This document shows positions 1 through 19,381 of a stretch of DNA of 19,381 bases, in pieces. Below the pieces are notes generated by a model that made no database searches, was not told the origin of the DNA, and saw nothing but the letters and a program-made list of their open reading frames with translations. The translations under genes and the position numbers were made by a program. The stretch is from positions 1-19,381 of IMG/VR virus record IMGVR_UViG_2861069343_000003. One strand, 5' to 3'. Position 1 is the first letter of the stretch, and the number at the start of each line of letters is the position of its first letter. This DNA comes from a virus (lineage: Duplodnaviria; Heunggongvirae; Uroviricota; Caudoviricetes).

Positions 1-552
1 ATGCATGACAATATTTGGTTTACATATAAAGCACGTATCCAAGCGCACCATCGACTAGAATGGCTTGAAAAACACTCTCAATTTATCCTCGTTTGGTATG
101 CTATATTGAGTGCGGTACTTTCAATTGTAACGTTGCGATTTCCAAAGGTTCTAGGAGATAATACAGATATCGTTGCGGCGATACTTTCAGTGGCTCTACT
201 GGGTATTTCTCTGATCGTATCTAACCTAGATTTTCGTGGTCGAGCAATAGCTATGAGAAGGAATTATATTGCACTACAGCGACTCTATTTTGACATTACC
301 ACCAGTCAACAGTTATCTCTTGAACAGAAAGAAAAATATTTTAATTTGCTCAATGAGGTTGAGAATCACCGTGACATAGATGATAAAATTTCAAGGGTAA
401 CTCAAGTTGGACTTAAGACGAGGATCCCCACACAAAAAGAAAAAATAATTGTTATTTTATGGATATTACTTCGAATATTTATTACTGCCGCACTTTATAT
501 ACTCCCATTAATATATCTTTGGATTGACTATGACTGCAAGCAGAATTTTTAA
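1..552 (+). CDS. Small multi-pass membrane protein (183 aa), possibly SLATT-like; candidate effector partner of the downstream reverse transcriptase
   Basis: ORF starts at the first base of the window, so the true start may lie upstream. Three hydrophobic helices by eye (FILVWYAILSAVLSIVTL, IVAAILSVALLGISLIVSNL, IIVILWILLRIFITAALYILPLIYLWI) flank a charged helical segment. The 3' end overlaps the RT start by about 25 nt in another frame, suggesting translational coupling. AT-rich. Confidence 0.6.
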   Translation: MHDNIWFTYKARIQAHHRLEWLEKHSQFILVWYAILSAVLSIVTLRFPKVLGDNTDIVAAILSVALLGISLIVSNLDFRGRAIAMRRNYIALQRLYFDITTSQQLSLEQKEKYFNLLNEVENHRDIDDKISRVTQVGLKTRIPTQKEKIIVILWILLRIFITAALYILPLIYLWIDYDCKQNF

Positions 553-1900
553 AAAGTCATTCTCGAAAAAAAACCTTCTAAAAGTATACTCTGAAAAAAT
601 CAAAGAATCAGGAGCGATTGGCATAGATCGGATTCGCCCATCAAAACTTGATTTGACAATAAAAAATGAGATCACTTTCATTTTTGAAAAGGTTAATTCT
701 GGCAATTACAAATTTACAGCATATAAAGAAAAATTAATATCTAAAGGCGCTAACTCTACACCCAGACAGATTTCCATACCAACTGCTAGGGACAGAATTA
801 CTCTTAGAGCTCTCTGTGAATGCCTTACGGAAATATATCCTAAGTCCAGATTAAAACTACCACATACAGTAATTGACTCATTGAAAGAAGCATTAAACAA
901 CAGTCTATATGCTGAATATGCAAAAATAGATCTTAAAAGTTTCTATCCTTCAATTGAACATAAATTGATAATTAATGCAATAAAAAATAAAATTAGAAAA
1001 AAAGAAATTAGACAGTTAATAACATCATCATTAATCGTGCCTACTGTAAGTGGAACCACAGGAAGCAAAGGTATCCCTAATAATACCAGAGGAGTACCTC
1101 AGGGATTAGCGATATCAAACATTTTAGCTGAAATATCACTATCTAATTTCGATGATGAAATCAATAAAATGCATGACATATGGTACATGCGATACGTTGA
1201 TGACATTCTTATTTTAACACCAAAATATCAAGCAACAAAAATAGCTTCTCATATCATTGATAAGCTTCAATCATTAAATTTAAACCCACATCCATTAAAT
1301 GAAGAGAACTCAAAATCCAAAGTAGGCAGTTTGGATGAAAGTTTTAACTTTTTGGGATACCACATAGAAAATCGAGAATTATTGATAAAACATGAGAGCA
1401 TTCTTAGATTTGAGTCATCCTTAGCAAAAATTTTTACTGCATATAGGCACGCTCTACTACAAGCTAAAAGTAAGCGTGATAAAGAACGAGCTGTTGCATA
1501 TTGTCAGTGGAAACTAAATCTCAGAATTACGGGATGTGTGTTTGAAGGTAAACGATTGGGATGGGTATCGTACTTCTCACAAATAACCTCAACAGCTCAA
1601 CTTCGCTCTGTTAATCATACTATCAATAATCTTATCCGCCGATTCGGCCTTTCATCAGAAATAAAACCAAAATCTTTGATTAAAACTTTCTATGAACTCC
1701 GCAGAGGTAGAGCGGAGACTTTTAAATACATACCTAACTTTGACAATCTACATATATCTCAGAAACGAGAACTTGTTTCTATGTGGATAGGTAAAGAGAA
1801 GGAAAAAAAACTTAGCAATAGTGAAATAGAGAGGAAGTTTAAATTTAAAATTGCGAAATCAGTAAAAGAGCTTGAAGAGGATATTTCAGGAATATCATAG
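524..1900 (+). CDS. Reverse transcriptase, 458 aa (defence-type RT: retron, UG/Abi or DRT-like; subfamily not assignable by eye)
   Basis: RT motifs are visible in the translation: IPTARDRITLRAL (motif 1/2), KIDLKSFYPSIEHKLI (motif A), GVPQGLAISNILAEISL (motif B'), YMRYVDDILIL (YxDD catalytic motif C), FLGYHIEN (motif E). A helical C-terminal extension of about 160 aa follows. Position 524 is a TTG; ATG at 530 is the more likely start. Confidence 0.88.
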   Translation: MTMTASRIFKKSFSKKNLLKVYSEKIKESGAIGIDRIRPSKLDLTIKNEITFIFEKVNSGNYKFTAYKEKLISKGANSTPRQISIPTARDRITLRALCECLTEIYPKSRLKLPHTVIDSLKEALNNSLYAEYAKIDLKSFYPSIEHKLIINAIKNKIRKKEIRQLITSSLIVPTVSGTTGSKGIPNNTRGVPQGLAISNILAEISLSNFDDEINKMHDIWYMRYVDDILILTPKYQATKIASHIIDKLQSLNLNPHPLNEENSKSKVGSLDESFNFLGYHIENRELLIKHESILRFESSLAKIFTAYRHALLQAKSKRDKERAVAYCQWKLNLRITGCVFEGKRLGWVSYFSQITSTAQLRSVNHTINNLIRRFGLSSEIKPKSLIKTFYELRRGRAETFKYIPNFDNLHISQKRELVSMWIGKEKEKKLSNSEIERKFKFKIAKSVKELEEDISGIS

Positions 1901-10953: not shown

Positions 10954-11594
10954 TTGTCGGTATACCTCTCTCGTTTGCTCAGTTGTTCAGGAATATGGTG
11001 CAGCAGCTCGCCGTCGCCGCAGTAAATTGCGGCGTGATTCGGCACCGATGAACCAAAACAGCACAGCAGCACATCGCCCGGCTGTGCCGCTGACAACGGC
11101 ACCTGATACAGCCCCGTCGCCTCCAGATTATCCAGATAGAGATTCTGGCCGTTACGCCACCAGTCATCCTCACGATGAAAGTCCGGCATCTCAATCCCCG
11201 CCAGATGATAAGCATCCCGGAACAGTGTGTAACAGTCCGTCACACCGTGCTCAAAGCGCCGCCCGGTGAGATGCGGCACACAGCGGAACTTATGAATCGT
11301 CCCCCGGCAGACCAGCCACCACGGCAAATCACTCTGCACCTGCAGCCGCCGGTCGGCCTCACTCAGCCAGGGCAGACCACCGGGGTGGCTGTGGACCAGC
11401 GCCACAATCTCACCCTGCATTTCTGCCTGCAGCCAGTCTTCCGGCGACATACGGAAATACGCCTCCGGCTCACCGGAGATATTCACGCAGGGGAAATATC
11501 TTTCCCCCTCCGGCGTGCTTACCACGAAGCCGCACGACTCCGCTGGCGCACATCGCCGGGCGTGCGCCAGAATCGCTGATTCTGTCTGTGTCAT
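10851..11594 (-). CDS. K: Tail tip assembly protein K (MPN/JAMM plus NlpC/P60 domains); ORF is 247 aa and runs 103 nt into I
   Basis: MTQTESAILAHARRCAPAESCGFVV...ALVHSHPGG (JAMM-type HxH) ...GVTDCYTLFRDAYH...NHAAIY (NlpC/P60 Cys and His) match lambda gpK. The last 48 residues are Arg-rich (RERYTDKWQRRTHSLWRHRAWRASA) and overlap I in another frame. Confidence 0.85.
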   Translation of the reverse strand: MTQTESAILAHARRCAPAESCGFVVSTPEGERYFPCVNISGEPEAYFRMSPEDWLQAEMQGEIVALVHSHPGGLPWLSEADRRLQVQSDLPWWLVCRGTIHKFRCVPHLTGRRFEHGVTDCYTLFRDAYHLAGIEMPDFHREDDWWRNGQNLYLDNLEATGLYQVPLSAAQPGDVLLCCFGSSVPNHAAIYCGDGELLHHIPEQLSKRERYTDKWQRRTHSLWRHRAWRASAFTGIYNDLAAASICV

Positions 11595-11599
11595 GGGAT

Positions 11600-12088
11600 T
11601 TACTGCGAAAGTTTGTTAATGGAAAGGAAGCCGCCAAAGTTGCCGACGTTATTGCGGAACTTACAACCGCTCAGGCATTTGCTGCATTTATCCTTCGTGA
11701 TATCGGACGTTGGCTGGTCATATTCATCCGCGACAGCCGGACCGCTATAACCGCACTCGTCACCGCGATAGGTCCAGGTGCAGGTGTTGGCCAGCATGAT
11801 ACGTCCCGGAAAAACAGCGCCATCCGTTTCCGTCGGCGTGGACAGTACAAAGGAGGCACTCACCGCGCTCAGTTCGCTGCACTGCTCAATGCGCCAGCGG
11901 CTGATCACCTCCTGCTCCGGATCGGCATAACTGTTTCCGTTGACGAAGTTCACCGCATCCAGAAAACGGGCGTAAACATTACGCCGGACCACCGTTCCGC
12001 CGACCAGACTCTGCATATCTTCCGCCATCCCGGTGACCATACCGTACAGGTTAGAAACCGTCAGCGTGGGGCGCGTACCGCTCTTTTT
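11600..12088 (-). pseudogene. L: 5'-truncated tail tip protein L (C-terminal 146-160 aa only; N-terminal 70-85 aa missing)
   Basis: The ORF translation MVTGMAEDMQSLVGGTVVRR...CSKCLSGCKFRNNVGNFGGFLSINKLSQ matches the C-terminal two-thirds of lambda gpL. Reading the same frame upstream gives KKSGTRPTLTVSNLYG (lambda: GKGTSTRPTLTVSNLYG), then unrelated sequence and a stop at 12107-12109. Confidence 0.75.
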
Positions 12089-14495: not shown

Positions 14496-15115
14496 TGACC
14501 ACATTTACCGATAAAGAACTGATTAAAGAAATCAAAGAGCGTATCAGCAGCCTGGAGGTTCGAGACGATATTGAGCGCCGTGCTTATGAAATTGCTCTGG
14601 CATCGCTGGAAGAGGAGCCGGTGGCATGGCTACATTCAGACAATGGCTTAGGTATTCCAGCAATAACCAGGAGTAAAAACATTGCTGACAGTTGGTTATC
14701 AAAGGGCTGGTATGTTCAGCCGCTATATATAGCCAAGCCAGTGCCGGTGGTGCCAGATGCTCGTCCGACTTTAAATAATGGCATAGTCGGTTTTGATGAA
14801 GGCTGGAACGCCTGCCGCACCACCATGCTTCACGGTGTCAAACCTGTAAGCCAGACTTACAAGTTGAACAAGCTGTCTGACAACTCTCCGGTAACTCCGG
14901 ATGGTTGGATAAGCTGTAGTGAGCGAATGCCGAACGATAAACAATATGTTTGGTGTTGGGGTAAGTCTTACGGCTGGACTGAGTGCGATACCTTCGAAGG
15001 GTATTACGATTGTTCGAGAAACAAATGGTGGGCAGTTACTGACGATGGGGAAGAACCGGCATTGAAAGTAACCCACTGGATGCCGCTACCGGAGCCACCG
15101 CAGGAGGTGAAGTAA
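14495..15115 (+). CDS. yfdT: YfdT-like protein with C-terminal DUF551-type domain (206 aa)
   Basis: C-terminus WISCSERMPNDKQYVWCWGKSYGWTECDTFEGYYD...KVTHWMPLPEPP resembles DUF551. Start and stop are both coupled to neighbours through TAATG overlaps. The K-12 copy is shorter as I recall. Confidence 0.6.
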   Translation: MTTFTDKELIKEIKERISSLEVRDDIERRAYEIALASLEEEPVAWLHSDNGLGIPAITRSKNIADSWLSKGWYVQPLYIAKPVPVVPDARPTLNNGIVGFDEGWNACRTTMLHGVKPVSQTYKLNKLSDNSPVTPDGWISCSERMPNDKQYVWCWGKSYGWTECDTFEGYYDCSRNKWWAVTDDGEEPALKVTHWMPLPEPPQEVK

Positions 15116-15309
15116 TGAACAACTTAATGACAACTAAACAAGTCGCCGACTTCTGTGGCGTTTCAGTATCGACAGTTCTTCGCTGGAACAGCGTAAACAG
15201 GAGAACTGGCCAGAAATATAGGCCTGACTTTCCAGATCCTGATATTAAATCCTGCCCCAATAAATGGGCATCACACAAGATATACAGGTTTGCGGGAGTT
15301 ATTGAGTAA
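15115..15309 (+). CDS. AlpA/Xis-family helix-turn-helix protein (putative excisionase or regulator), 64 aa
   Basis: HTH segment TTKQVADFCGVSVSTVLRW is typical of AlpA/phage-excisionase HTH proteins. It is the last gene of the plus-strand operon and converges on the integrase-side cargo gene. Confidence 0.65.
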   Translation: MNNLMTTKQVADFCGVSVSTVLRWNSVNRRTGQKYRPDFPDPDIKSCPNKWASHKIYRFAGVIE

Positions 15310-15322
15310 TACGTATTAGTTC

Positions 15323-15387
15323 AGATGTGAGCTAACACATCTATGGCACAGAGCTAAACCTAATCTGACTGTCTACTCTGTGCCATA
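15323..15387. repeat. Two adjacent inverted repeats (hairpins) in the convergent intergenic region between the AlpA-like gene and the 870-aa cargo gene
   Basis: AGATGTG (15323-15329) pairs with CACATCT (15336-15342) around a 6-nt loop. TATGGCACAGAG (15342-15353) pairs with CTCTGTGCCATA (15376-15387), a perfect 12-bp stem with a 22-nt loop. Neither has a clean U-tract. They lie exactly at the composition change into the AT-rich cassette. Confidence 0.4.
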
Positions 15388-15442
15388 AGTGGATGTTAAT
15401 TACTTCTTGGTATTTTAATGGTTGGATAGCTTATCAAGATTA

Positions 15443-18055
15443 CTAATCACCCTGTGATGTAAAATAAAACCAATGGTATTCTAGAGCTTGCATAGACAAC
15501 CCAACCTTGTCCCTCAATAGGACACCATTCAGCTCCTGATAGTACCTATCGCGCACCATATCACTTACGTGAATCCTTAAAGTCGCTGGGTCAATAGATA
15601 TTAGATAGTTATCAAAGAGACGATGTATATCAGTACGCAATAACAAGCCATTTTTTATATGATTATCCTTATCTCCTCTGTAAGGATAAATATGAGCTGC
15701 ATCAAGTACTGCTATTGTTTTGCACCCAGTAAAGGCACATTGCCCCCAAACGTTTATCAGTTTATTTCTGAAGTCGCTTTGACCTATACGTATCGTGACG
15801 TTTCTATTTATAACCTTTCGTTCATCAGAGTTATTTATTTTAAAACTCCCTGCTGTTGAAAAATCAAATTTTTCAGTCGCACTAAATATTTTTTTAGATT
15901 GTTTTTTTACTTTTGCAAGCTGTAAATCTGACTTTATTTGTAAGGGTTTTGAGTTTTCTTCATCAAACGATGGAAGTTGAAGTTCTTTAATCATGCTGGT
16001 AGATAGAAAATTTTTGTAACTCATTAACTTAAAATCTAATCCTCGCTCATAACGAATTTTAGAGAGCACTATTGCAGCTTCTTCAATGTATTTAAAACTA
16101 CTTTTCCTTTTATCCCATAATTGAGATAAACAATCTGCATTTAACCTATCATATCTTGATAAAATCTCACCCAAACTGCTGGCTTTAGCGGCGCTATCAT
16201 AGTTTATATACTGTTTTTCTTGGGAATCTTCAATGGAATCCAGAATAAAATTTATATTTACATGATTATCTGCATCTGCATCTGCAGATGCAGATGAATC
16301 ATTAAAATTATCGTAGTCAAGAGAATTTTGATCACTCCAAATAGGTAGCGATAGATAGCAAATATTATCAATGCTGTCGTCCACCAACATTAATTTTTGG
16401 TGGAGTAAAAATAATATAACTGAAGCTTCAAGGTAATTCATTTCTTGTGACAAGAATTTTTCTTTAAGCATATCAAAGTCATATTGTACGTATTCATTTT
16501 TTTTCTTTGATATTACGGAGAGTTGCTCTTCACTTAAGACCACTGGCCTGTCTTCTGATATATTACGAAGTAAGTATGAAATCAATTTTTTTTGATTTTT
16601 TTTAGAATCTTCAGACCTAGGAGGTTCGAGAAACACACCTTCAAGTCTATCCAATGCTTTAAGGCAACTTCCCGCAAGCCTAGTCATCGCATCTTTTCTT
16701 GTTTGAATTAGAGGATCTGCATAGATAACAAAATTATCCCCATTACGAATATGAGCTATTTCAAGCTGATATACATCTAGATTTTTTATAAGTTTAAATA
16801 CAAATCCGTATTTTTGCATTCTATGCAAAGTCAGTGTCGGTATAATATCTTTATTAGATTCTTCATCCAAATTATAGTTTTTTATTCTTTTGTACAACCA
16901 ATTTGTTGCAGAGGAAGAGCAAATTAACTCATTATATTGAATTTTACTATTTTTAGTTATCAGATTTAGAAGAGACATTCCAAACAATGCCTGAATACAA
17001 TCTACATAATAAGATATAGTTGTATAATCTGGATGTCCTTTATAGGGGAGAGAATCTATTGAAATAAAACCTGAGTTATAGAATCTCATAAAGTTTTTTT
17101 CAGATAACACCATGATCCCTAACGTAGTTCTGTCAATAACATTCTGTCCATTTTTTATTATCTCAAGTAGGCTTACTGAAGCTAGTAAGGAAATATAATG
17201 CGAACCTAAAGTAGCGAGATCTCTGTGCGAACTTATAGATCTATTTTTACCCTTTATTCTAGGGGGTATAAAAGCCTGGATTGAATTAAAGTTATTTGAA
17301 AAACCAAAAGCCATGTTCAATTCATTGTTGATGTAACACTCTTTAACATTCGGTTTCTGTACGCCACCCCATGCTGAAATAATACTATTAGATTTTAATA
17401 TTTGTTTTTTATTGTTTTTCAAATTCAAATGATTGCAAACTAAACTGGCAACATTATTCTCTGCTTTTTTTTTACTCTCACCACTTCCGATAAATATCTG
17501 TCCATTAGGAAGTGCTATTTCAGACTCATATATTGGTGCATGCTCGGTCCCACCAGCCAAGGTGGTTTTGTATGTAGGGATTATGTGTTGATGTCTTTGG
17601 AAATATTCATGTAAAAGAGTTTTTGGGGGTTTGCCAACAAATGACTCCGTAATAGAAAGGCTTTCAACAAAAAATTTGAGATGTAATATGATATCACAAT
17701 TAGATATCGCCCCTAGGTAAAATTGAAATATTTGAATTATCATAGAAGATGAGTTGATTTCTTCTTGTTTTACTCCAGGACCAAATTCTGTTTGTTGGTA
17801 GACTTTTGTTAAGGGAAAATTTGTAACAACAAGCTCTCTTAGTTTTTTCTTCAGGCTGCTAGTCATAATGCTTAAATTGTTACCATCCGCACCTTCTATA
17901 CTCAGAGACCGACAAGCGCAGATTAAATCCTCAAGCGACTTACCAACTGATACAGTTGCGTTAAACAATTCAGTATTGCAATTAAAAGATGAACGATGAC
18001 TTATCTGAATATAATTTTCGTTGATATGATTTATGAATAACTTATTCATTTTCAC
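15443..18055 (-). CDS. 870-aa multidomain protein: N-terminal catalytically degenerate RNase III-like domain plus dsRBD, central region with a possible second RNase III-like repeat, C-terminal HNH nuclease domain; candidate defence effector
   Basis: By-eye alignment to E. coli RNase III across residues 15-210: ISHRSS / LTHRSA, FGPGVKQ / [22 protein letters not shown] / [37 protein letters not shown] / [29 protein letters not shown] / [23 protein letters not shown] / GTGSSRRKAEQAAA. The ERLEFLGD box is replaced by TELFNATV and the D/E of ADTVEA by Q/Q. C-terminus (residues 750-845): [11 protein letters not shown]...GQCAFTGC...LDAAHIYP...[15 protein letters not shown], an HNH-type motif. Strongly AT-rich. 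The track start at 18055 is a GTG; ATG at 18049 is the alternative. Confidence 0.85.
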   Translation of the reverse strand: [870 protein letters not shown]

Positions 18056-18081
18056 CTCGTGTATTATTCGATAAAGATCAC

Positions 18082-18110
18082 ATTGTACGTGATATCAACT
18101 ACTTGCTCAA
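18082..18110 (-). promoter_or_regulatory. Putative sigma70 promoter for the 870-aa gene
   Basis: On the minus strand: -35 TTGAGC (plus-strand 18105-18110), a 17-nt spacer, and -10 TACAAT (plus-strand 18082-18087). This is in the 102-bp gap between the integrase stop and the cargo gene start. Confidence 0.4.
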
Positions 18111-18157
18111 AGCAGATCGTCATATCCTATTGCGTTCTAGCTACGTAAACTATCCTA

Positions 18158-19381
18158 TCAGTTAGAGTCTGAGTTAGTACAAGTAACAATCGATTCAACT
18201 CTCTCCCACCATGCCTGGTAGGCTTTACGCTGTTCTTCTAGATAATCGCTCTTGTCATAAACTTGCCATACCCCTGGCAGTTTATGACCTAGCATTATTT
18301 CTGCAATATGAGGCGCAGTAAGATCAGAAAAGTTTGTTCGTGCTGTTCGTCTCAAATCATGAAGAGACCAATGAGGAAATTGATACCCCAAACGCCGCCA
18401 TGCGTACTGCATTAAATTGTAAGGCAGCGACTGCAATGATGTCCGACCAACTGGTTCCCTGCTTCCTTCCTTAGTAAAAAGCATATCGGAACCGTTGTTC
18501 ATAGAGATAACGTATTTTATAATCTCTTCAACCGGTTCAATAATGGGCCGCTTTAGCGGTTCGCCTGTTATATCCCCTGTCTTATGTCGTTCTGGTGGTA
18601 CAGTCCATATCTTATTAATGAAATCAAAATCGTCCACCTTGGCAGTAATTAGCTCTGAACTACGGCAACCAAAATGAAGCAATAGTTTAATGAAGGCCCG
18701 GTATTTAGGAACCATTCGAGAACCATCGATCGCAGCATAAAGGATTTTAATTTCATCATGTGTCAGAAACCGTTTCTTCTGACCTTTACGGATATCCATA
18801 TCTTTACCCGTGATATCCGACAGCGGGCGAGTTTCAATGAGCTTTCTCTTATACGCCCAGACATGGGCCTGCTTTGCGTTAATTAGCAATCGGTCTGCTA
18901 TTGCTGGAGTCTTAGTGCTAAGAGGCTCCAGGACTTCTAACCAATCATGCAATGTAGCTGCATCGTTAGGGATATTCCCGATTTTAGAGAACAGGTGCAG
19001 CTCAAACGAGCGGAGTATCTGTTCAGAACCTTTTTTATTTTTTACACAATATGCTTCATACCAGGCACGGATCACAGACTCTACCGTCATGGCTTCAGTA
19101 GCTTTTCGTTTTTCAGCCTGCTTGACCAATCGTGGATTACGGTTTGACTCGAGTTCACCACGGAGACGGATAACTTCTTCTCTGGCCTCTTTTAATCCAG
19201 TTGCCGGGTAAGTTCCGATATCAAGACGCTCACCTTTCCCTGCCCATTGATAACGATATTGGAACACTACGCGACCTTTCGGTGATACTCTGACAGACAA
19301 ACCATCACGATCGGATTTAACCAAAACCTTATCACGTTCCTTTCCAACGACTGAACGCAACCACGCATCAGACAGCGCCAT
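18158..19381 (-). CDS. int: Tyrosine integrase (P4-type phage integrase family), 407 aa
   Basis: N-terminal DUF4102-like arm (LSVRVSPKGRVVFQYRYQWAGKGERLDIGTYP) and catalytic-domain boxes: HFGCRSSEL (Arg box), HDLRRTARTNF (H-x-x-R), MLGHK, and a candidate catalytic Tyr in VYDKSDYLEEQ. The start codon is the last three bases of the window. Confidence 0.9.
   Translation of the reverse strand: MALSDAWLRSVVGKERDKVLVKSDRDGLSVRVSPKGRVVFQYRYQWAGKGERLDIGTYPATGLKEAREEVIRLRGELESNRNPRLVKQAEKRKATEAMTVESVIRAWYEAYCVKNKKGSEQILRSFELHLFSKIGNIPNDAATLHDWLEVLEPLSTKTPAIADRLLINAKQAHVWAYKRKLIETRPLSDITGKDMDIRKGQKKRFLTHDEIKILYAAIDGSRMVPKYRAFIKLLLHFGCRSSELITAKVDDFDFINKIWTVPPERHKTGDITGEPLKRPIIEPVEEIIKYVISMNNGSDMLFTKEGSREPVGRTSLQSLPYNLMQYAWRRLGYQFPHWSLHDLRRTARTNFSDLTAPHIAEIMLGHKLPGVWQVYDKSDYLEEQRKAYQAWWERVESIVTCTNSDSN

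Follow-up and report, generated by a model that had tools for sequence, protein, structure and literature searches.

What does a single low-GC gene, lodged between the integrase and the excisionase of an Escherichia coli prophage, encode, and what could it do for its carrier? We examined this question in a 19,381-nt stretch of viral DNA (IMG/VR record IMGVR_UViG_2861069343_000003; hereafter the window, to which all unprefixed coordinates refer), which is a decayed lambdoid, CPS-53-like E. coli prophage with its insertion site between prfC and yjjG. The gene lies on the minus strand. Its product carries two tandem RNase III-like modules, each with a double-stranded RNA (dsRNA)-binding domain (dsRBD), in which the RNase III sites are lost, and ends in an HNH nuclease whose catalytic triad is intact. 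The protein is most likely a single-chain sensor-nuclease of an undescribed type.

The gene was listed as an open reading frame (ORF) that is slightly longer than its coding sequence.

15443..18055, minus strand: ORF as listed, with GTG at 18055 as the listed start
15443..18049, minus strand: complete coding sequence, 868 amino acids plus stop; RefSeq WP_086625076.1, annotated as "HNH endonuclease"

The ATG at 18049 is the likely start codon, judging from the GAGGTG ahead of it, and it is also the RefSeq start of WP_086625076.1. The protein divides into the parts below, from the N-terminus to the C-terminus; secondary structure and predicted local distance difference test (pLDDT) values are those of an AlphaFold2 (AF2) model.

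17645..18049, minus strand: pseudo-RNase III domain a, residues 1-135, HRS motif retained
17420..17632, minus strand: dsRBD-1, residues 140-210, canonical, with KTxLxEYxQ, GGTEH and SKKKAE
16856..17329, minus strand: pseudo-RNase III domain b, residues 241-398, with one motif of 10 and one of 11 residues
16634..16846, minus strand: dsRBD-2, residues 402-472, alpha-beta-beta-beta-alpha in the AF2 model, degenerate, no KKxAE motif
16340..16618, minus strand: helical connector, residues 478-570, AF2 helices with pLDDT 76-91
16181..16333, minus strand: acidic disordered linker, residues 573-623, pLDDT <50
15974..16177, minus strand: conserved helical domain, residues 625-692, with a motif that begins LW..R.. 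and runs on for 19 further residues
15836..15964, minus strand: second disordered linker, basic, residues 696-738, pLDDT <50
15446..15832, minus strand: HNH_2 nuclease domain, residues 740-868, catalytic H786, N800 and H809

An earlier note, made by reading this DNA by eye, had likened the N-terminus to RNase III with its dsRBD, and profile comparison bears the likeness out. An exhaustive profile search with residues 1-740 supplied the homologue set, about 20 full-length relatives, and also showed ordinary RNase III proteins of 220-230 amino acids aligning to positions 16-210. A comparison profile was built from these ordinary RNase III hits and compared with the family profile by hhalign. Residues 15-210 corresponded to residues 26-225 of E. 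coli RNase III with a probability of 99.96% (E=4e-39), and the catalytic part taken alone, residues 1-140, matched the RNase III profile at E=3e-10. dsRBD-1 was recognized by Pfam dsrm at residues 142-208 (E=2.6e-10), had a pLDDT of about 80, and gave PDB profile matches to RNase III and TRBP. None of the RNase III models in Pfam matched the protein directly, and the match of the NCBIfam RNase III equivalog model was limited to the dsRBD part.

The catalytic carboxylates of this first module (module a) are substituted. In E. coli numbering, E41 is replaced by V33, D45 by K37, D114 by Q106 and E117 by Q109; alignments differ on the equivalent of E38, giving either E27 or N30, and the family does not conserve this position. 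The earlier note had also concluded that the carboxylates were lost, and rightly, but it took TELFNATV for the first catalytic box, whereas the profile alignment gives E...ATVSVGK. dsRBD-1 keeps all three canonical dsRNA-contact motifs. In canonical dsRBDs, the equivalents of its residues E148 and H170 contact 2'-OH groups on both strands.

Where a single RNase III module had been described, that module proved real but is followed by another. Residues 225-475 form a second RNase III-plus-dsRBD module (module b), with an end-to-end profile match at E=6.9e-6 and a probability of 84.5%. Its dsRBD-2 aligned to the RNase III dsRBD in hhalign and was undetected by Pfam. The second modules of two sister proteins, which share the tandem arrangement, reach Pfam Ribonucleas_3_3 (E=2e-9 and 8e-11), and module b is thereby tied to RNase III by transitivity. 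In module b, E38 is replaced by R276, E41 by A279, D45 by S283 and E117 by Q353, and D114 is kept as D350. A279 (the E41 site), G282 and Q353 (the E117 site) are invariant in the family, and the D45 site is S or A; SHRxLAxLG[AS] and another module b motif, of 10 residues, rank among the most conserved stretches of the N-terminal half. The substitutes at metal-ligand sites are basic or neutral, for example K37 for D45 in module a and R276 for E38 in module b. The RNase III catalytic carboxylates are gone from both modules in all aligned members with the region present (about 20). Because the metal ligands are lost, cleavage of dsRNA by the RNase III-like modules is predicted to be absent.

The AF2 model was computed from a 20-sequence alignment and had a mean pLDDT of 74.6 and a predicted template modelling score (pTM) of 0.47; a model from four sequences (pLDDT 36) was discarded. 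The pLDDT was mostly 70-94 over residues 1-570, with brief dips at domain junctions. A Foldseek search of the PDB with this model placed E. coli RNase III first, with Aquifex RNase III also on top, and Dicer, Drosha and DCL chains aligned across about 500 columns. The best match in BFVD was a tandem RNase III of a giant virus. The model matched the tandem RIIIDa/RIIIDb enzymes rigidly over about 260-295 residues, indicating that it pairs the two dead domains. Modules a and b are thus modelled as packing into an intramolecular pseudo-dimer of the Dicer/Drosha kind.

The C-terminal nuclease, which the eye had also picked out, was identified by Pfam as HNH_2 at residues 771-820 (E=2e-13). The only solved HNH relative was VcaM4I (6yex, E=2.5e-4), an EVE-HNH type IV enzyme. 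H786, N800 and H809 align to H224, N241 and D250, the catalytic residues of VcaM4I (PMC7897488), and H786 is the histidine of AAHIYP. Of the 20 aligned members, 18 have the whole triad; the exceptions are P0019, with a disrupted HNH region, and P0024, which is without an HNH domain. The HNH domain of VcaM4I is dimeric; a linker helix auto-inhibits it, and by itself it is toxic (PMC7897488). Other restriction enzymes with HNH_2 include AlwI, BbrI and HphI (PMC5714182).

Between the RNase III-like modules and the nuclease, the connector at residues 478-570 had no detectable relatives, with no Pfam or PDB sequence match. The acidic linker spans 44-106 amino acids across the family, with a median net charge of -6; in a homologue on a phage contig (L009 7994-10750) it carries a long (Asp-Val)n expansion. 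The helical domain at residues 625-692 is the second most conserved region, with a mean pairwise identity of 0.39. It is also present in the HNH_2 relatives P0030 and P0031, and the PLD fusions described below stop at the second dsRBD and have no room for it.

Both dead modules are retained in the approximately 20 homologues, which are distant (19-49% identity) and come from Gammaproteobacteria and metagenomes. They fall into clusters of 1-3 sequences, from E. coli, Acinetobacter albensis, Pseudomonas laurentiana and metagenomes, and existing annotation calls them only "putative dsRNA-binding protein" or "HNH endonuclease". A word-indexed search that used the 20-sequence profile brought no further homologues, and a scan of 185,579 species-representative genomes with one motif, Yx[VI]DC[IV]Q[AS]LF, found 0 relatives. 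INPHARED phage genomes gave HNH-domain matches only, and among PHROGs only HNH and dsRBD pieces were matched.

The tandem modules also occur in sister proteins with other partners. In P0046, P0041 and P0079 the two RNase III-plus-dsRBD modules come after an N-terminal PLD nuclease; in P0071 and P0092 they precede a HATPase_c domain at the C-terminus; and in P0032 they follow about 520 unassigned residues. Profile matches between the window protein and the sister modules run specifically from a to a and from b to b. Among the sister a modules, four of the five that could be aligned carry K or R in place of D45; four of five b modules carry A, S and Q in place of E41, D45 and E117, respectively, with P0079_b and P0032_b departing from this pattern. 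From these sequence relationships we conclude that the dead a/b cassette probably had a single origin and was later combined with at least three effector types. Sensor modules of conflict systems typically show such swapping among effectors, and the cassette would be one of them. P0044, considered as a free-standing dead module, was rejected, as its cluster includes an 884-amino-acid member.

The slot that the gene occupies in the prophage is bounded by two genes.

18158..19381, minus strand: tyrosine integrase of the prophage (Pfam), one edge of the cargo slot
15115..15309, plus strand: excisionase, xis (PHROG 1553, E=4e-36), the other edge of the cargo slot

The earlier note had placed the gene in a defence-cargo location between an integrase and an AlpA-like gene; the slot is as described, but the second neighbour is the excisionase. 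The GC content of the gene is 0.328 against 0.492 for the remainder of the window, in keeping with the AT-rich insert that had been noticed, and it is 4-17 points under the flanking DNA in all nine loci compared. The same integrase (96-98% identity) is present in 700 of 5426 complete E. coli genomes and the gene in 18 of them. On the integrase side, five genomes inspected (window 15310-18157 and contigs L016-L019) held five different cargos. One alternative cargo is an Mrr_cat nuclease with a HEPN/RES-NTD protein; three others (150+160, 417 and 515 amino acids) had no Pfam or PADLOC match and may be further uncharacterized accessory genes. The expectation of a defence-cargo site is supported by these counts.

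Elsewhere, homologues of 49-60% identity lie on temperate-phage contigs at a different site, between ParB-like/replication and DUF968/Q-like genes. One homologue directly follows two GmrSD genes, and another is the principal gene carried by a 6.5-kb integrase island that lies between dnaX and ligA. The sister architectures adjoin type I restriction-modification (R-M), NERD, AIPR, DUF499 and AAA_15/21 genes. The comparative genomics proposed at the outset thus finds relatives beside integrases and known defence genes, among them GmrSD, type I R-M, NERD and AIPR. In qualitative terms, the gene and its relatives are associated with defence islands, the int-xis slot is variable, and the same prophage carries a reverse-transcriptase defence pair, described below.

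At L013 8001-11959, whose island also contains type I R-M and NERD genes, the P0071 gene overlaps the start of a receiver-Schlafen/AlbA_2 gene, which suggests a two-component-like signalling version of the same sensor.

A conserved partner gene was sought across the loci and none was found. The neighbours differ (a 62-amino-acid ORF beside P0008, a 239-amino-acid gene in L012, a separate HNH_2 gene in L002), the two 239-amino-acid neighbour proteins are mutually unrelated, and int and xis show no similarity across loci; the gene is therefore treated as stand-alone. The 62-amino-acid ORF lies directly 5' of P0008 in two independent contigs (L004 5528-5716 and L005 422-610); PADLOC does not match it, no Pfam hit is recorded for it, and the window contains nothing equivalent.

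How does this protein compare with known systems? Its residues 15-210 are collinear with the whole of bacterial class 1 RNase III (Rnc; E. coli 7r97, Aquifex 2ez6), with which it shares the HRS motif and the RNA-contact motifs of the dsRBD. It differs from that enzyme in that the ERLEFLGD signature is absent, all placed carboxylates of module a are replaced, the module is duplicated, and an HNH DNase is fused to it. Pseudo-RNase III proteins such as mitoribosomal mL44 and the KREPB4-type partners of the trypanosome editosome likewise keep the fold as a non-catalytic RNA-binding or scaffold module, and mL44 chains were among the Foldseek matches. However, these proteins are eukaryotic and are parts of stable ribonucleoprotein machines without fusion to a nuclease effector.

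In Drosha and Dicer, tandem RIIIDa/RIIIDb domains form an intramolecular dimer, and this arrangement is regarded as textbook-eukaryotic. The window protein shares with them two RNase III domains per chain and, as modelled, their intramolecular pairing. It differs in having two dead centres, in lacking helicase, PAZ and platform domains, in the dsRBD placed between its RNase III domains, and in its effector, a DNase. No sequence evidence for specific ancestry with eukaryotic Drosha or Dicer was obtained.

A separate protein, P0051 (L020 6001-13176; L021 2831-10006), was encountered on a conjugative element, where it adjoins relaxase, NikA-like and DUF736 genes. It has 2391 amino acids and consists of a ResIII helicase and two RNase III-plus-dsRBD modules in which E38, E41, D45, D114 and E117 are all intact. 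This order of domains, a helicase and tandem, apparently active RNase III modules, is Dicer-like and occurs here in a bacterial mobile element. The gene after P0051 encodes a 2557-amino-acid sigma70-plus-DEAD protein.

In layout the protein parallels type IV enzymes of the reader-HNH_2 kind (VcaM4I, EVE-HNH; TagI and ScoMcrA, SRA/SBD-HNH), which likewise join an N-terminal reader to a C-terminal HNH (PMC7897488, PMC6765204). The GQxxFR...AAHIxP...NGLLL...HRLFD motifs and the catalytic positions are shared with the VcaM4I-type HNH_2. Here, however, the tandem dead RNase III/dsRBD unit replaces the PUA-superfamily modified-base pocket, and the chain, at about three times the length, also contains disordered linkers and one further helical domain that is conserved. 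Searches with Pfam, NCBIfam and fold comparison found no modified-base reader (SRA, EVE, other PUA, SBD or winged helix), so the protein falls outside the type IV reader-HNH family as such a reader defines it. In PADLOC-DB v2.0.0 no system-specific protein model matched over most of its length, and only generic HNH models did, at residues 713-834, which agrees with the earlier remark that the architecture was not recognized as any named defence system. A literature search found no description of it either, with most subscription journals outside its coverage, so an earlier description is possible. The known bacterial single-chain sensor-nucleases read DNA modifications or use guides or proteins, and none of those found is built on an RNase III/dsRBD scaffold.

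We tentatively propose, at somewhat less than an even chance, that the protein is a single-protein immune nuclease in which binding of an A-form duplex (dsRNA) licenses the HNH DNase. We infer the dsRNA ligand, the activation step, the DNA target and the defence phenotype from the anatomy of the protein and its neighbourhood. It would be a prophage-borne, stand-alone device laid out as sensor (residues 1-475), connector and effector (625-868). In the sensor, the paired dead modules would form a cleft that grips an A-form duplex without cutting it, most likely dsRNA of phage infection. The effector would consist of the conserved helical domain ahead of an HNH_2 DNase of the reader-HNH type IV restriction kind. 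In a resting lysogen the HNH would be restrained, perhaps through the connector together with the acidic linker. Duplex RNA on the sensor would then lift the inhibition, align at least two molecules so that their HNH domains dimerize, or both. DNA would be cut as a result, and the infecting phage would be stopped directly or via abortive infection. PKR, in which dsRBD recognition of duplex RNA is coupled to an effector that needs dimerization on the RNA scaffold, follows the same proposed logic; the likeness would be a functional analogy only, and there is no effector homology. If this proposal is right, a dsRNA-licensed DNase would be a new trigger class in prokaryotic immunity that mirrors the sensing of viral dsRNA in eukaryotes. 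The system consists of a single gene in E. coli, which makes it directly accessible to tests, and a duplex-RNA-gated DNase could also serve as a tool.

Several points weigh against dsRNA-licensed immunity. The RNase III domain of module b taken alone has a weaker sequence link to RNase III (E=5e-4), dsRBD-2 is degenerate, and the pseudo-dimer geometry comes from a single AF2 model with its 20-sequence alignment and pTM of 0.47. The family is very rare, as its presence in 18 of 5426 E. coli genomes and its clusters of 1-3 sequences attest; most alternative cargos of the slot are without a recognizable defence domain; and no antitoxin or immunity partner is conserved at the loci. E. coli always holds some dsRNA, and a trigger by any dsRNA would risk autoimmunity. 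Finally, the characterized reader-HNH enzymes cut the DNA bound by their reader, in cis (PMC7897488), and a hybrid or DNA ligand would fit that behaviour better.

This last point leads to a different explanation, a cis-acting restriction-like enzyme in which the dead platform reads an RNA:DNA hybrid or R-loop (from replication primers or transcription bubbles), or A-form-like or modified phage DNA, and the HNH cuts nearby. In its favour, VcaM4I, the one relative of the HNH with a solved structure, is a type IV enzyme, and reader-HNH enzymes work in cis (PMC7897488); further support comes from a weak NCBIfam match to a phosphorothioate-dependent restriction enzyme, a PADLOC HNH match that is a restriction-enzyme model, and the homologue directly after two GmrSD type IV genes. 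We nonetheless consider it unlikely: dsRBD-1 keeps E148 and H170, the residues for 2'-OH contacts on both strands, no PUA, SRA, EVE or other modified-base reader was found, and RNase III folds are not known as readers of modified DNA. Another reading is that the HNH substitutes for the lost RNase III site and would degrade phage or host duplex RNA held in the cleft, rather than DNA. The full substrate-binding scaffold of RNase III is indeed kept, with only the catalytic residues lost, and sister proteins join the cassette to another type of nuclease, PLD. Such a dsRNA-directed ribonuclease is improbable, however, because the characterized HNH_2 relatives found are DNases (VcaM4I; AlwI, BbrI and HphI, PMC5714182), about 270 residues with two disordered linkers separate the cleft from the HNH, and the host already has an active RNase III.

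Could the gene instead serve the phage? As a counter-defence factor, the protein would sequester or mark dsRNA so that neither host sensors nor RNase III notice an infection or an induction; alternatively, its target would be the DNA of competitors or of the host while the phage runs through its own cycle. The sequestering role is an analogy with the dsRBD proteins of eukaryotic viruses. Temperate phages do carry the gene at two different genome positions, and at this locus it converges on the early-left operon, so that overlapping transcripts are possible on induction. Yet sequestration needs no intact and conserved DNase, and homologues and sisters are also found in non-phage chromosomal islands near R-M, GmrSD, AIPR and NERD genes, which makes a benefit to the phage distinctly improbable. 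A purely selfish role, that of a free-standing HNH homing endonuclease moving between phage genomes, would account for a single low-GC gene with an HNH nuclease at differing intergenic positions in different phages. Homing enzymes of this kind are small HNH proteins with homing-type DNA-binding modules, inserted in or beside a conserved target gene, and the protein does not fit this description: at 868 amino acids, with a tandem RNase III/dsRBD front, the protein is unlike the known ones, and Pfam detected no NUMOD, AP2 or other homing-type DNA-binding domain. Furthermore, HNH_2 is a restriction-type family, the gene occurs in chromosomal defence islands, and the cassette is fused to PLD and ATPase partners as well, so that we regard homing as highly improbable.

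Returning to dsRNA-licensed immunity, a broader claim, realistic though less likely than not, concerns the a/b cassette as a whole: it may be an unrecognized prokaryotic dsRNA immune receptor, an intramolecular RNase III pair of the Dicer/Drosha kind, in which cleavage was traded for sensing and which works with interchangeable effectors. These effectors would be the HNH DNase, the PLD nucleases and a histidine-kinase-type ATPase signalling to the receiver-Schlafen protein. If true, bacteria and their phages would possess an immunity set off by dsRNA, an analogue of the PKR, OAS and Dicer pathways, and eukaryotes would not be the inventors of tandem RNase III domains. The presence of tandem paired RNase III domains in phage and bacterial proteins would then bear on the origin of the Drosha/Dicer architecture.

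The remaining features of the locus concern transcription of the gene and the prophage around it.

18082..18110, minus strand: promoter-like site TTGAGC-17-TACAAT, upstream of the gene, 9/12 match
15341..15388, minus strand: long hairpin, stem about 17 bp, fold z=-4.5; lies within the 133 nt that separate xis from the gene converging on it

A promoter-like sequence of the gene's own had been noted, and the site is there; as evidence for a promoter it is weak, since the upstream region has no excess of promoter-like sites over shuffled sequence. The downstream regions of homologues do not conserve the hairpin, so it is read as a terminator, probably a bidirectional one; it lacks a U-tract. A cis-encoded RNA partner was sought with Rfam, which gave 0 matches in the window. 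The gene shares the orientation of int, lies immediately 3' of it, and converges on the early-left operon, whose last gene is xis. Because of this convergence, overlapping antisense transcripts across 15115-18049 could arise on prophage induction.

In the prophage as a whole, a SLATT gene and a UG17 reverse transcriptase (RT) gene, a defence-associated RT (DRT) pair, are followed by the tail genes (fibre, Lom, J, I, K), a deletion junction, the early genes yfdP/Q/R with two DUF551 genes, the excisionase, the studied gene and the integrase.

1-1900, plus strand: SLATT_5 and UG17 RT, a DRT-type defence pair at the opposite end of the same prophage remnant

The pair was recognized by PADLOC (RT_UG17, E=1e-158; RTasSLATT, E=1e-56) and has a GC content of 0.31-0.36. 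At the deletion junction, at about 11588-12075, a truncated tail gene L abuts the early genes yfdP/yfdQ. Agreement between the window and IMG/VR contig L007 extends from 19381 to 12075, where the two diverge.

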